A stretch of 64,000 bases of DNA from Lachnospiraceae bacterium (GTDB lineage Bacteria > Bacillota > Clostridia > Lachnospirales > Lachnospiraceae), in assembly GCA_036310185.1 (NCBI GenBank), contig JAXJSH010000070.1, forward strand, positions 59,865 through 123,864, written 5' to 3'. Both the position numbers and the translations under genes were made by a program. Numbering within the stretch: the first letter of the stretch is position 1; each line of letters opens with the position of its first letter. The notes under the pieces are model-generated. The model made no database searches, had not been told where the DNA came from, and saw nothing but the letters and a program-made list of their open reading frames with translations. Shown in pieces: positions 38,129 to 43,237 of the stretch.

Positions 38129-38922
38129 GCAAATTATTCAAACACCAAATGAAATCGGTCAGTAAAGTCCTGATCATTATCCACGCAGCGCTGCTTCTTC
38201 TGGGACTTTTCCTTGGTATCACAGCGCCAAACTTTGCTGAAAGCAGCGAATTTTTCAATGCATACGAATTTATTTTTGTTTTTGCCATGGTTCTGTATAT
38301 TTTCCTGCTTGCAGGCGTACTTATGGCAACTTATATACTGTTAGGCATCCGCTTTTACCGCAATATGTTCACGGACGAAGGCTACCTGACACATACACTG
38401 CCGGTAAAAACCGGAACATTGCTGTTTTCTCATATACTGACTTTTACGGTATGGTATGTTATTTCCATGATTGTCATGTTCCTGTCCATTGCTTTACTTG
38501 TGATCGGTGCAGGAGGCGGCAGCGAATTATTTGAATTAATTTCTTATCTGCCGGAAGTCTATAACACAAGTATGCCTGTCCTGATTCTGGCAGTCGCACA
38601 ATACCTGATTGTTGGTGCCATCTCGGCCGCTACTATGATTTATCTGTCAACCTGTATCGGAAACCTGTTTGCGCCTCATAAAGTCATTGCTTCAATCGTT
38701 TCTTACATTATACTTTACATCATTGTAATGATTGTCTCCATGATATTTATGATATGCTCACCAGCCCTTAAGGATATGATGTTCTCATCCACATCTTATG
38801 TATATCTTCCAACCGAATTCATACAGACCATGTGGCAGACTGAACTGTTAACCATAATCCTTGCAGCGGTATTTTGGATTTCCAGTCATATCATTCTGAA
38901 AAAACATCTGAATATGGAGTAA
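38122..38922 (+). CDS. ABC-2-type membrane protein (putative permease partner)
   Basis: 266 aa with about 6 hydrophobic helices. It overlaps the ATPase gene by 7 nt. Confidence 0.65.
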   Translation: MLGKLFKHQMKSVSKVLIIIHAALLLLGLFLGITAPNFAESSEFFNAYEFIFVFAMVLYIFLLAGVLMATYILLGIRFYRNMFTDEGYLTHTLPVKTGTLLFSHILTFTVWYVISMIVMFLSIALLVIGAGGGSELFELISYLPEVYNTSMPVLILAVAQYLIVGAISAATMIYLSTCIGNLFAPHKVIASIVSYIILYIIVMIVSMIFMICSPALKDMMFSSTSYVYLPTEFIQTMWQTELLTIILAAVFWISSHIILKKHLNME

Positions 38923-38928
38923 AACATT

Positions 38929-38966
38929 TGGGACCGTCGCGAAAATCGCACGGTCCCAGACTTTTT
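38929..38966 (+). terminator. Rho-independent terminator of the GntR-ABC operon
   Basis: Stem TGGGACCGT/ACGGTCCCA with extra inner GCG/CGC pairs, followed by GACTTTTTAC. Confidence 0.65.
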
Positions 38967-39003
38967 ACATTATGCATCTTTATGATTCTCAAACATGCAA
39001 CGG

Positions 39004-39546
39004 TTATCTTTTACTTAAATCAGTATCTTTCTCGCTAAACTGTCTCTCAACAATTTTCACATTCCCCTTATACGTTTGTCGAATCATTCTCTCCAAATTG
39101 GTATACTCTGGTGAAGCTTTCAAATTTGGCGTAGAAGATGTAACAATTGCTCTCGCATACACATGACTAAACTTTCGAAAAACATCTTTATATAATATCA
39201 AGGTTCCTTTCAGTTGTTCTAATGCTTTTTGCACGTTAACCCCTTTCAATTCTGTTAAAACAGCAGTCAATTCCGAATCATCCACAACATAAAAGTAATC
39301 ACATTTGTTTGTATGTGGAGGCACTGTATTGTCCTCAACAATAATACCATTATCCATTTTATATAAAATCACATGGTTCTTTTTAGTATTTTCCAATATA
39401 TACTTTTTCTTGCTTTCTTCGCACTTTACAGCAGAACGATTGTCCGATGACTCAATGCAAACAGATTGATTTCTATTATCACATTCAGCTAACGAAATCC
39501 CCGCCAATTGCCCGTCTATACATTCTTGCAATTTTTTACAAATCAT
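39004..39546 (-). CDS. Hypothetical 180-aa protein with PD-(D/E)xK-like motif (putative nuclease partner of the ATPase)
   Basis: The ATG overlaps the ATPase stop (ATGA). Alternating beta-like segments HVILYKMDNGIIVED, KCDYFYVVDD and TAVLTELKG are followed by the helix VQKALEQL. This gives D83/D89-x-E99-L-K101, which matches the D...ExK layout. The gene is AT-rich. Confidence 0.6.
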   Translation of the reverse strand: MICKKLQECIDGQLAGISLAECDNRNQSVCIESSDNRSAVKCEESKKKYILENTKKNHVILYKMDNGIIVEDNTVPPHTNKCDYFYVVDDSELTAVLTELKGVNVQKALEQLKGTLILYKDVFRKFSHVYARAIVTSSTPNLKASPEYTNLERMIRQTYKGNVKIVERQFSEKDTDLSKR

Positions 39547-40850
39547 TCGTCTATCTCCATATCAATCAATTCTTCTAGCTCACTATTTGTAATTGAAGAC
39601 ACTTCATCAATATAGCTTGTACTTATCATATGACTTTCTTCATCCAATAACGATTCCATTGTTTTTTCAAATCTTCCGATTTTGAAAGCTACAAAATTAC
39701 CATAACTCACTCTTAAATTTCTGGGAATTATAACCTTTCCATCTTTCGAGTGTGCATTTTCAACTTTCTCAGAATATAATAAAATGTTTGTAGAAGTAAG
39801 AATATATGGACTATGCGTTGTAATAATAACTTTACTATTTGTAACATTTACCATCAGTGAAATCAGACTGATAATATCTTTTTGAGCAACAGGAAACAAG
39901 TGTGCTTCCGGTTCTTCTATTACAATGAAAGATTTTTTCTTTTCCAGTATAATTACAAAAGCCAACATTAATATCCATAAAGCTTCCTGCTGTCCTGATG
40001 ACCCATACATTAACTTAACCCAATGATATTCATCAAAATAAATTTTTTCTCCATCATTTTCACTTGTATAATCAGCTTTAAGAATCTTTTTGATTAATTC
40101 ATACGCATATTCCAGTGCTACATTATTTACCTGTCCTTTTACCGTCTTAGTATAATCTTTCACCATTTCCGGAATTTTTGTTCCAAACTTGTTTTTTGTA
40201 GTTCTTATCAGCTTTATAAATTCCTGCATGGTTAAATCCATTTCATCAACAGATACATCCTGCAGCTGTTCCGACATGGTAGCCAGCAAACTTCTTCCGG
40301 CAGGTACATATATAATATCCATTTCATTTCCGAATGACGCAATTAACGCTTCATTCAAATGACGCTTCATTACACCTAATGCTGTAATGTTATCCATAAT
40401 AGAACTAACTTCGCTGTTCAATTTATCTAAAAACATGTCAGCAGATTCATCTATCAACTGCAATATCTCATTTTTCAATATAGGATCAAAAGAAAAACGC
40501 ACATAACCATCCTGATTCAAAAATATACTGATTTTTTTACCAGAAAAATCATATAAAATTTTAAATTTTTGCATATGTTTTGTTTTTCCGAAACACCCCA
40601 TAAATTGTCTGGTCAAATATTTTAAATAGTTATTAAAATATTCATTTTTATGATTCTGGGTAAACTGTTCTGAACTCATCAAAAAATCCAATGTATAATC
40701 TCTGATTTTCTGACAAAAATACACCACTTTACAAATTGTACTTTTTCCAGAAGCCTGCGCCCCAATAAAGATTTGAAAATTTTTGTTTAAATCAACCTTT
40801 GCCTCACGAACAGGCCCGAAATTTCGAATGATAATTTCATTTTTTCTCAT
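39543..40850 (-). CDS. ABC/SMC-fold ATPase (AAA_15/AAA_21-like)
   Basis: 435 aa. Walker A GAQASGKST (aa 30-38), VPAGRS (aa 182-187), signature-like SSGQQE (aa 284-289), Walker B FIVIEEPE (aa 308-315), H-loop TTHSP (aa 344-348). About 245 aa are inserted between Walker A and the signature. Confidence 0.85.
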   Translation of the reverse strand: MRKNEIIIRNFGPVREAKVDLNKNFQIFIGAQASGKSTICKVVYFCQKIRDYTLDFLMSSEQFTQNHKNEYFNNYLKYLTRQFMGCFGKTKHMQKFKILYDFSGKKISIFLNQDGYVRFSFDPILKNEILQLIDESADMFLDKLNSEVSSIMDNITALGVMKRHLNEALIASFGNEMDIIYVPAGRSLLATMSEQLQDVSVDEMDLTMQEFIKLIRTTKNKFGTKIPEMVKDYTKTVKGQVNNVALEYAYELIKKILKADYTSENDGEKIYFDEYHWVKLMYGSSGQQEALWILMLAFVIILEKKKSFIVIEEPEAHLFPVAQKDIISLISLMVNVTNSKVIITTHSPYILTSTNILLYSEKVENAHSKDGKVIIPRNLRVSYGNFVAFKIGRFEKTMESLLDEESHMISTSYIDEVSSITNSELEELIDMEIDE

Positions 40851-40895
40851 AATCTGCGCTTCCTAACATCTTTTTATTTACTATTCAATACAAAA

Positions 40896-40924
40896 ATTAT
40901 ATGAGATATTATTTTAATTTACAA
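40896..40924 (-). promoter_or_regulatory. Near-consensus sigma-A promoter of the two-gene island (TTGTAA-17-TATAAT)
   Basis: Minus strand: TTGTAA (40919-40924), 17-nt spacer, TATAAT (40896-40901), about 45 nt upstream of the ATPase ATG. RBS AGGAAG. Confidence 0.55.
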
Positions 40925-40957
40925 TGATATTTTAAAAATAAATATTTTTATACCAAA

Positions 40958-40985
40958 AGGCCCCCGCTGTCACCAGCGGAAGCCT
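40958..40985 (-). terminator. Possible terminator after the amidase gene
   Basis: Stem CCGCTG/CAGCGG plus outer AGGC/GCCT pairs. The T-tract on the minus strand is weak (CCTTTTGGT). Confidence 0.4.
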
Positions 40986-40991
40986 CTCATC

Positions 40992-41725: not shown

Positions 41726-43237
<1,512 letters not shown>

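Follow-up and report, generated by a model that had tools for sequence, protein, structure and literature searches.

A two-gene ATPase and putative nuclease cassette in a Lachnospiraceae genome as a probable member of the WonAB family of anti-phage systems

A low-GC islet with two overlapping genes

Two overlapping genes on the minus strand of the 64,000-nt stretch of Lachnospiraceae DNA analysed here (the window) raise the question of whether they constitute a phage-defence pair and, if so, whether that pair is new, as an earlier note made from the sequence had proposed. The first, gene A (wonA-like; minus strand, 39543..40850), encodes a 435-aa OLD-type ABC ATPase, and the second, gene B (wonB-like; minus strand, 39004..39546), a 180-aa protein that is predicted to be the nuclease effector. 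Both ORFs were confirmed, and the numbers of their homologues (thousands for A; hundreds for B, with 1,423 clusters at 50% identity) indicate that they are real genes. The stop codon of gene A and the start codon of gene B overlap in an ATGA sequence (minus strand, 39543..39546), and a GGAG ribosome-binding site for gene B (minus strand, 39555-39558) is situated within the 3' end of gene A. By sequence, A and B are translationally coupled, and in the loci compared they are always inherited together as an autonomous unit.

The two genes are the only ones in an islet of approximately 1.9 kb (38970..40990, no strand assigned). Its GC content (0.31 in gene A and 0.34 in gene B) lies below that of the flanks (0.44-0.47) and of the neighbouring genes (0.40-0.47), and the same holds for GC3 (0.27 and 0.30, respectively, versus 0.39-0.53). 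The neighbours in the window include amidase, guaB, groEL and pepF genes. Neither integrase nor transposase genes, flanking repeats or att sites were found in the flanks of the islet, where the repeat search returned AT-rich chance matches only.

Upstream of gene A, an AGGAAG ribosome-binding site (minus strand, 40859-40864) precedes the start codon by 8 nt, and a consensus scan located the promoter-like sequence TTGTAA-17-TATAAT (minus strand, 40896..40924; 10/12 matches) 46 nt upstream of the ATG, the gap between the amidase gene and gene A being 141 nt long. This sequence, previously taken as the pair's own promoter, is indeed present and is a plausible promoter of the pair; we grade it no higher because, in a region this rich in AT, such sites show no enrichment relative to shuffled sequence (15 observed versus 11.5 +/- 3.3 expected). 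At the other end, an inverted repeat search revealed a hairpin with 19-nt arms (38919..38968, no strand assigned; core GGGACCGT / ACGGTCCC) between gene B and a convergent ABC-2 permease gene. It is probably a bidirectional terminator and would delimit the islet downstream, although its T-run was too short for it to be called in the terminator scan.

An intact ABC ATPase and a putative PD-(D/E)xK nuclease

By its motifs, A is an OLD-type ABC ATPase of the ABC/SMC fold in which all the catalytic motifs are intact. These motifs comprise the Walker A GAQASGKST (residues 30-38, including K36), VPAGRS (182-187, with R186 at the "Q-loop" position), the signature-like SSGQQE (284-289), the Walker B FIVIEEPE (308-315, with the catalytic E312-E313) and the H-loop TTHSP (344-348, with H346). 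A total of 245 residues separate the Walker A motif from the signature, and an extension of about 70 aa (365-435) forms the C-terminus. The Pfam search matched AAA_15 (6.5e-28) and AAA_21 (3.7e-14) and detected no nuclease or Toprim domain, so that the split ABC head with its 245-residue insertion and no fused nuclease, as originally described, is confirmed by motif positions and Pfam alike. A Foldseek search with the model of A, which is of poor quality at residues 188-283, produced 129 matches at E<=1e-3, including the heads of Rad50, PtuA, AriA, OLD and SMC; the nearest solved folds were those of PtuA, AriA, retron-associated ATPases and OLD, with a best TM of only ~0.42-0.47.

To define the conserved residues of B we used 106 diverse relatives, each 25-52% identical to it. 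D65, D83, E99-x-K101, Q111 and R132 were invariant throughout this set. Of the residues first pointed out, D83 and E99-x-K101 hold, whereas D89 was not conserved, and the original list had missed D65, Q111 and R132 as well as the N-terminal cysteines C3, C9, C22, C30 and C42. The protein can be divided into a cysteine cluster (residues 1-42) and a putative nuclease core (~55-175) containing D65, D83, E99-L-K101-G102, Q111 and R132. In a confident AlphaFold2 model (pLDDT 92.7), D83 is followed by a strand (84-89), a second strand (93-99) ends at E99-x-K101, Q111 sits in a helix (105-118), and a further strand spans residues 128-135.

Profile searches placed B in no family of Pfam, NCBIfam or PHROGs, with no Pfam family above threshold, and two B profiles run against PDB sequences found no homologue. 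Among the relatives of B, the weak but recurring Pfam matches all fell within the PD-(D/E)xK clan (HSDR_N in 13 members, HSDR_N_2 in 12, DUF2726 in 3 and NucS_C in 2), and single members matched Cas4 (6e-4) and, in another case, SduA (9e-5). A fold search against PDB and BFVD gave nothing at E<=1e-3 (best E 1.5e-2, TM 0.2-0.3), its weak top matches (Mus81, EcoO109I, XPF, NucS and the Avs4 nuclease domain) being weakly enriched in restriction-fold proteins. Since Foldseek returned no significant match, the assignment of B to the PD-(D/E)xK type proposed earlier rests on its invariant motifs, the clan-confined profile matches and its homology to WonB, which carries an equivalent essential lysine. 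Taken together, this evidence supports the view that B is a variant PD-(D/E)xK nuclease of small size whose putative D...D...ExK...Q active site is intact. The corresponding assignment of WonB itself comes from modelling and one mutant (PMC12137116).

Inactive versions of B are also found. In Acetatifactor lineages, variants with an in-frame deletion that removes D65 and D83, and hence catalytically dead, persist; the apparent disruption of gene B at another locus (L064) is explained by a scaffold gap.

Relationship to WonAB and to other ATPase-nuclease systems

WonAB is a system of the V. cholerae WASA-1 prophage (Adams et al., Nat Microbiol 2025, PMC12137116) that confers phage resistance by abortive infection and requires both genes and both active sites. 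WonA K34, R182, E300 and H333 and WonB K71 are each essential for defence (PMC12137116). In BLASTP comparisons, A was 25% identical to V. cholerae WonA over 355 aa (E 1e-23), with K36, R186, E313 and H346 aligned with K34, R182, E300 and H333, and B was 33% identical to WonB over 105 aa (E 6e-12), with D65, D83, E99-L-K101-G and Q111 aligned with D40, D53, E69-L-K71-G and Q81. An hhalign comparison of the B-family profile with WonB gave a probability of 99.1% (E 6e-19). Consequently, all five experimentally essential residues of WonAB have counterparts here (K36, R186, E313 and H346 in A; K101 in B).

The likeness extends to the organisation of the system. In both cases the gene for the ATPase (~400-450 aa) precedes that for the small nuclease (~140-180 aa) in an operon of two co-oriented genes, and both are carried on mobile DNA. 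WonA and A have in common an arginine in place of the Q-loop glutamine, the SSGQQE signature, the motifs EEPEAHLFP and THSPYIL, and an extended C-terminus; WonB and B share the predicted variant PD-(D/E)xK core with VDG(G), CD(Y/W), ELKG and A-x-x-Q motifs. Residues ~378-435 of A align with the C-termini of the full-length WonA proteins of Maridesulfovibrio and Bacteroides ovatus (AYxI...SxLDEE...ID-VS...LxDxE), which suggests that the extension of A is a conserved counterpart of the surface of WonA predicted to dock WonB.

WonAB homologues are all encompassed by the "OLD-ABC ATPase + novel REase" operon family of Krishnan, Burroughs, Iyer and Aravind (2020) in the account of PMC12137116, where the model of the operon was built from Anaerovibrio lipolyticus (Supplementary Table 5) and the family is assigned to 0.96% of genomes. 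The branch closest to the pair is this operon, in the form of its Geobacillus kaustophilus member (PMC12137116, Table 5), whose "OLD-ABC ATPase" is 39% identical to A over 390 collinear residues, inserts included (E 5e-86), and whose "Novel REase" matches B at E 3e-12. Furthermore, a protein of Anaerocolumna, another member of the Lachnospiraceae, that was called WonB by the WonAB model of that study (PMC12137116, Table 4) is 48% identical to B over its full length.

PADLOC has two candidate systems, PDC-M29 and PDC-M47, in which an ABC ATPase (FAM_00005) is joined to a small unannotated partner and which are described as untested (Payne et al. 2024 bioRxiv, 10.1101/2024.01.29.577857); the supplementary tables of that work list cassette composition and contain no partner-family annotation. 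A literature search under the name "PDC-M29" found nothing. A matched PDC-M29A at 1.6e-21, in three stretches, and B matched PDC-M29B at 7.5e-07 over 126 of 164 profile positions; 54 of the 106 relatives of B also matched PDC-M29B. The Bacteroides fragilis "Novel REase" and WonB matched the same model (4.8e-64 and 1.2e-09, respectively), which makes PDC-M29 a branch of the WonAB family. True members of PDC-M29 score around 1e-64, and the modest scores of the pair, which come from PADLOC models built on a different, Bacteroides-type branch, thus place it on a sister branch.

The named systems PARIS, Septu, Gabija, HEC-02 and PD-T4-4 follow the same logic, with an OLD/SMC-type ABC ATPase as both sensor and regulator for a nuclease effector, and A matched the generic PADLOC profiles AriA, PtuA, GajA, HEC-01A and PD-T4-4_A. 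B, for its part, gave no Toprim/DUF4435, HNH, UvrD-helicase or NERD match in Pfam or PADLOC, and no match to the AriB, PtuB, GajB, NERD or RloB-type partner models of PADLOC, in agreement with the lack of HNH and Toprim motifs recorded at the outset. PARIS is excluded by the lack of an AriB, Toprim or DUF4435 match of B at E<=1 in Pfam and PADLOC, A fitting the generic AriA/AAA_15 profile only. Septu is excluded by the lack of an HNH or PtuB match in B and by the weak match of A to PtuA (PADLOC 9e-14; NCBIfam 35.9 bits, cut-off 500). Gabija consists of a GajA-Toprim fusion and the UvrD-like helicase GajB; A has no Toprim domain and the islet no helicase gene. HEC-02 (ABC ATPase and NERD) does not fit, B lacking a NERD or HEC-02B match and HEC-02A not ranking in the top 25 among the 113 PADLOC models matched by A. 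In the case of PD-T4-4, which is related to WonAB but a distinct operon (PMC12137116), A matched PD-T4-4_A at 3.9e-15 but B did not match PD-T4-4_B at E<=1; V. cholerae WonB itself shows a marginal match to this model (6e-3). AbiL was rejected on account of a mismatch of the partner protein in Pfam and PADLOC.

Distribution, proposed mode of action and alternative readings

In essentially every locus examined, genes A and B are adjacent, in the same order and with overlapping stop and start codons, the overlap measuring 1 to 20 nt in all annotated homologous loci. At least 32 distinct genomic contexts were found (31 among 50 loci, plus that of the window), and no third gene recurred in the 31 context groups from the 50 loci. 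One related pair lies inside a prophage, another adjoins a prophage, and a third is located in a defence or toxin island with transposase, NERD, PIN and nucleotidyltransferase genes. In other taxa, 40 genome loci with the pair lacked the amidase, guaB, groEL and pepF genes, which contradicts its conservation as a core gene pair. In the species of the window itself, the cassette lies between housekeeping genes and not in a defence island, and each of the 16 contigs sampled from this species carried it, with no empty site or presence-absence polymorphism. A tblastn search with B found no match in phage and plasmid collections, nor did a viral contig collection contain the wonB qPCR primer. A second large-database search with a diverse alignment recovered mostly the same close relatives.

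The family proved to be widespread in gut Lachnospiraceae, including Eisenbergiella, Acetatifactor, Hungatella, Blautia, Dorea and Fusicatenibacter, whereas matches to the WonAB model were described as mainly Gram-negative (PMC12137116). Judging from these loci, the pair is one that moves through gut Lachnospiraceae as a bare two-gene cassette, prophages included, and the contexts support its description as a mobile defence or abortive-infection cassette. A further difference from WonAB, which is a prophage moron, is that the pair of the window belongs to a Gram-positive host, occupies a chromosomal islet and has no adjacent transcriptional regulator.

On the strength of this homology, the low GC content and these mobile-cassette contexts, which also support the defence role first suggested for the pair, the cassette very probably belongs to the WonAB family, having been acquired horizontally, and would act as a two-gene anti-phage abortive-infection system. 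If it works as WonAB does (PMC12137116), A would dimerise through ATP-sandwiched heads, and its paired C-terminal extensions would offer the docking site for B. After the onset of phage DNA replication, the ATPase activity of A would license the nuclease of B, a form of control that would differ from simple antitoxin-style sequestration, and proteolysis would keep any excess of free B low. Activated B would shut down translation, with a tRNA or rRNA as the most likely cleavage target, and leave the chromosome undegraded; the arrest of the infected cell would block phage production. Given the modest identity to the V. cholerae proteins (25% for A and 33% for B), trigger and target could differ from those of WonAB.

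An alternative scheme differs in the substrate. Within the same family, B could be a restriction-like DNase that cuts DNA of the phage or the host under licence from A, on the pattern of Gabija, Septu and the OLD nucleases, with no shutdown of translation through RNA cleavage. Most PD-(D/E)xK enzymes are DNases, the weak profile and fold matches of B are to DNA nucleases (the HsdR N-terminal domain, NucS, Mus81/XPF and EcoO109I), its cysteine-rich N-terminus could form a zinc ribbon that binds DNA, and its identity to WonB is only 33%. We nevertheless consider a DNA target unlikely, since the toxicity of V. cholerae WonB stops translation and leaves genomic DNA intact, the authors proposing an rRNA or tRNA target (PMC12137116), and the active-site residues are identical in B. 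Our literature search found no direct target identification for any WonAB-family member.

It is improbable that the islet is instead a selfish, toxin-antitoxin-like addiction cassette in which the loss of A frees a toxic B and which has no real anti-phage role in the host. WonB is not toxic without WonA and needs its ATPase activity, which excludes simple antitoxin sequestration for WonAB, and WonAB protects strongly against phage (PMC12137116); the order of ATPase first and small coupled effector second, as well as the prophage and defence-island contexts, likewise fit defence. These considerations outweigh the small size and autonomy of a two-gene islet that lies amid housekeeping genes in 16/16 own-species contigs, the Pfam text for AAA_21 ("putative AbiEii toxin, Type IV TA system") and the persistence of catalytically dead B variants in Acetatifactor.

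The proposal that the pair is a distinct, previously undescribed ATPase-nuclease module, apart from all named systems, could draw on the lack of a Pfam or NCBIfam family, a PDB sequence homologue or a significant fold match for B, on its failure to match the partner models of PADLOC and on the lack of the N-terminal cysteine cluster in V. cholerae WonB. This claim of novelty fails because the pair belongs to an existing family: A and B show clear homology to WonA/WonB as well as to the "OLD-ABC ATPase + Novel REase" pairs, PMC12137116 already names an orthologue from the Lachnospiraceae among its WonAB hits, and PADLOC-DB already contains the family branch PDC-M29. We regard a separate module as very improbable. 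Least credible of all is a housekeeping pair for DNA repair or chromosome maintenance, composed of a RecF/RecN/Rad50-like ATPase and an accessory nuclease, since the Rad50, RecN and SMC heads among the top Foldseek matches of A reflect the shared ABC head alone (TM <= 0.48) and the weak NCBIfam RecF and RecN matches at its N-terminus stand against a patchy distribution, a low GC content, at least 32 unrelated contexts, prophage carriage and specific homology to a validated defence system.

The pair opens no new mechanistic question by itself, and its practical value is modest. All that sets it apart, on comparison of the sequences, is an N-terminal extension of B with four conserved cysteines, B being 40 aa longer than WonB. 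This extension carries C3, C9, C22 and C30, and C42 falls within the part that aligns; all five are missing from V. cholerae WonB, and the 143-aa Geobacillus REase lacks most of the cysteine-rich extension. C3, C9, C22 and C30 were jointly present in 89 of the 106 relatives of B, and C42 in 85. The N-terminus gave a weak Pfam match to Zn_Tnp_IS91 (E 0.24). The extension probably forms a structural zinc site, with possible effects on stability, on docking or on the binding of nucleic acids. We put forward, tentatively, that the Lachnospiraceae-type B might be a distinct WonB subtype in which the cluster is a functional zinc-binding module that alters nuclease recognition or the hold and release of B by the ATPase. 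If so, the cysteine-type subfamily could have another target (e.g., DNA or a different RNA) or another trigger than WonAB. The cysteine-rich subtype could be of use as a comparator once the nucleic-acid target of WonB is identified.

Three separately named things are joined by these comparisons, namely the "OLD-ABC ATPase + novel REase" operon, WonAB and PADLOC PDC-M29/PDC-M47. Joining the names should aid annotation, since the small partner, at present without a Pfam or NCBIfam model, is labelled "hypothetical protein" everywhere.

Two overlapping genes within a low-GC islet

The gene for the 435-aa OLD-type ABC ATPase (A; 39543-40850, minus strand) and that for its 180-aa partner (B; 39004-39546, minus strand) overlap on this strand at 39543-39546, where an ATGA holds both the stop and the start codon, as the earlier note had claimed and as ORF and sequence reading confirmed. 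At the level of sequence, this overlap demonstrates an arrangement for translational coupling of A and B. An AGGAAG ribosome-binding site is located 8 nt 5' of the ATG codon of A. The promoter proposed for the pair, TTGTAA-17-TATAAT, is indeed present upstream of A (40924-40896, minus strand), but promoter-like sites in this AT-rich stretch are not enriched over shuffled sequence (15 observed versus 11.5 +/- 3.3 expected), and the promoter of A is thus plausible only.

A and B constitute a low-GC islet, with GC contents of 0.31 and 0.34 (neighbouring genes, 0.40-0.47) and GC3 values of 0.27 and 0.30 (neighbouring genes, 0.39-0.53), respectively. The islet has an ABC-2 permease gene on one side and, on the other, an Amidase_2 gene followed by guaB and groEL, and a search of its flanks revealed no adjacent repeats, integrase or transposase. 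A hairpin with 19-nt arms (38919-38968, core GGGACCGT/ACGGTCCC), missed by a simple terminator scan, separates B from the convergent ABC-2 permease gene and is likely a bidirectional terminator. For guaB (41726-43228), the mechanical ORF comprises 500 aa from a TTG codon, but the gene is called at 484 aa in near-identical contigs, and translation thus probably begins at an internal ATG.

Assignment of the pair to the WonAB family

The motifs previously read in A were all found in place, i.e., Walker A (residues 30-38), VPAGRS (182-187), SSGQQE (284-289), FIVIEEPE (308-315) and TTHSP (344-348), with 245 residues separating Walker A from the signature, and the predicted ATPase active site is intact. 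Pfam searches matched A to AAA_15 (6.5e-28) and AAA_21 (3.7e-14) and detected no second domain, in agreement with the proposed absence of a fused nuclease. The AlphaFold2 model of A (pLDDT 74, residues 188-283 being poor) retrieved 129 PDB chains at E<=1e-3, the best with a TM-score of only ~0.42-0.47, and all of them are ABC heads of the Rad50, SMC, RecN, PtuA, AriA, OLD or retron-ATPase type.

WonAB is a two-gene operon of the Vibrio cholerae WASA-1 prophage (Adams et al., Nat Microbiol 2025, PMC12137116). Its products, a 16-kDa variant PD-(D/E)xK nuclease and an OLD-type ABC ATPase, act by abortive infection to protect against ICP1 and, in an E. coli host, against Vequintavirinae. Adams et al. 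connect the operon with the 'OLD-ABC ATPase + novel REase' pair of the ABC ATPase survey by Krishnan et al. 2020. Direct comparisons with sequences from the supplementary tables of PMC12137116 aligned B with WonB (33% identity over 105 aa, E 6e-12), matching D65/D83/E99-L-K101-G/Q111 with D40/D53/E69-L-K71-G/Q81, and A with WonA (25% identity over 355 aa, E 1e-23), matching K36/R186/E313/H346 with K34/R182/E300/H333. WonB K71 and these four WonA residues are essential for defence according to mutagenesis (PMC12137116). Furthermore, hhalign of the B-family profile against WonB gave a probability of 99.1% (E 6e-19). A is 39% identical over 390 aa, inserts included, to the Geobacillus kaustophilus 'OLD-ABC ATPase' of Table 5 in PMC12137116 (E 5e-86), B matches the Geobacillus 'Novel REase' (E 3e-12), and B is 48% identical over its full length to a Lachnospiraceae protein, from Anaerocolumna, that Table 4 gives as a WonB match.

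PDC-M29, an ABC ATPase family with an unannotated partner family, is one of the 145 PDC candidate systems derived from 'guilt-by-embedding' (Payne et al. 2024). Its PADLOC-DB profiles were matched by A (PDC-M29A, 1.6e-21) and B (PDC-M29B, 7.5e-07), with weaker matches to PDC-M47A and PDC-M47B. PDC-M29B was also matched by 54 of 106 B relatives, by V. cholerae WonB (1.2e-09, roughly level with B) and by the Bacteroides fragilis 'Novel REase' of Table 5 (4.8e-64). On the basis of these cross-matches, a single family takes in 'OLD-ABC ATPase + novel REase', WonAB and PDC-M29 (with PDC-M47) as its branches, and homology places A and B within it. The ATPase-nuclease defence function proposed earlier is therefore essentially right as a prediction from the homology of both components to WonAB. 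The suggestion of an undescribed module fails, the family having been predicted in silico in 2020 (Krishnan et al.), included in PADLOC as a candidate and validated experimentally in 2025 (PMC12137116). In contrast to the matches to the WonAB model, described as mainly Gram-negative (PMC12137116), the pair in the window belongs to a Gram-positive gut anaerobe, and it lacks an adjacent regulator.

Predicted nuclease and mode of action

B belongs to no Pfam or NCBIfam family, and profile searches found no PDB relatives by sequence. An exhaustive profile search gathered 1,423 clusters at 50% identity, mostly of 140-220 aa. An alignment of 106 members, whose identity to B is just 25-52%, has seven invariant columns (D65, D83, E99, K101, G102, Q111 and R132), with C82, L100, E44, Y49 and P140 nearly invariant; among the motif residues named in the earlier note, D83, E99 and K101 thus stood, whereas D89 is not conserved. 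In the predicted structure of B, which is of high confidence (pLDDT 92.7), D83 begins strand 84-89, E99-x-K101 closes strand 93-99 and Q111 lies in the next helix, a predicted layout that is the canonical PD-(D/E)xK arrangement. Although this layout fits, Foldseek returned no significant match, its weak top matches being Mus81, EcoO109I, BsmI, XPF, NucS and the Avs4 nuclease domain. Recurrent weak Pfam matches among the 106 members were confined to PD-(D/E)xK-clan families (HSDR_N, 13; HSDR_N_2, 12; DUF2726, 3; NucS_C, 2). Together with the WonB homology, the motif layout and these clan matches support the restriction-endonuclease-like fold suggested for B, whose predicted nuclease active site is intact.

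B carries an N-terminal extension of ~30-36 residues. Of the 106 relatives, 89 have all of its cysteines C3, C9, C22 and C30, and 85 have C42. This cluster, a putative site probably binding structural zinc, is absent from V. cholerae WonB and missing from several other branches too.

By analogy with WonAB, A would dimerise and B would bind the dimerised C-terminal extensions of A; the extension of WonA is the predicted docking surface for WonB (PMC12137116), and that of A aligns with full-length WonA proteins. The system would fire once phage DNA replication has begun, and A would license B rather than merely sequester it, since in WonAB the nuclease is toxic only with an ATPase-active partner present (PMC12137116). 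Translation would stop and genomic DNA would stay intact, the observations from which the WonAB authors propose an rRNA or tRNA target (PMC12137116); a search of the available literature found no later mechanistic work. A DNA-targeting variant in the branch of the window is a less likely alternative. In WonAB, Lon-dependent degradation of WonB limits autoimmunity (PMC12137116), and the same would apply to B.

Genomic distribution and contexts

In 40 genome loci with B relatives from Lachnospiraceae and related Clostridia, A lies directly upstream of B wherever the DNA suffices, and the amidase, guaB, groEL and pepF flanks of the window recur in none. Loci with both genes number 50 and represent 31 context groups, including housekeeping-operon sites and a site adjoining a prophage integrase; no third gene is shared by more than three groups, and the recurring ones are generic. 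The overlapping stop/start codons were maintained throughout the loci examined, and in the pair's own species 16 of 16 contigs with identical flanking proteins contain the intact cassette (99-100% identical). The behaviour of the pair is thus that of a mobile, autonomous cassette of two genes, inherited as a unit; the varied contexts and unshared flanks argue against a core pair held at one locus across the family.

Several individual loci deserve description. In a prophage (L075, 8698-10531; L076, 2407-4240), a WonAB-like pair (B 46% identical) is flanked by tail-tube (YomU_Tube) and antirepressor (P22_AR_N/ANT) genes, much as V. cholerae WonAB is itself prophage-borne. A capsule/O-antigen-type biosynthesis locus (L053 and L054, 1-10549) carries three consecutive AAA_15/AAA_21 ATPase modules: a 436-aa ATPase with 216- and 123-aa ORFs, a 364-aa ATPase with 145-, 239- and 71-aa ORFs, and a WonAB-like pair; the small partners in the first two have no Pfam match. 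On a separate contig (L074, 2005-12350), a distant pair (B 30% identical, 147 aa) next to a DDE transposase is followed by DUF4365, NERD+Zn_ribbon_Top1, NTP_transf_2 (nucleotidyltransferase), PIN and DUF433 genes, a typical defence/toxin-antitoxin island. In Eisenbergiella (L041-L046; e.g., L041, 7911-8672), a same-strand DUF6062 gene (253 aa), absent from the other context groups, stops 29 nt before the ATPase gene and could represent a lineage-specific third component or regulator. The pair is preceded in bacterium D16-51 (L047, 4496-8364) by a Uma2 (PD-(D/E)xK) gene and a 990-aa HD_3-domain gene, and at L026 by a 1016-aa ORF.

In uncultured Acetatifactor, three B variants (P0107 and P0108, 142 aa, 28 and 43 contigs; P0120, 136 aa) have an in-frame internal deletion (alignment A1 columns ~57-97) with D65 and D83 lost and E99 changed, and look like catalytically dead nuclease copies persisting in this lineage. 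At L064 (5161-5711), the gene caller breaks B into 42- and 117-aa ORFs, an assembly artefact rather than a mutation, since a run of N (scaffold gap) occupies codons 21-22. Finally, the A homologue P0127 (82% identical) is labelled 'MAG: Alphaproteobacteria bacterium'; all other close relatives are from Lachnospiraceae, and its source is probably a mis-binned metagenomic contig.
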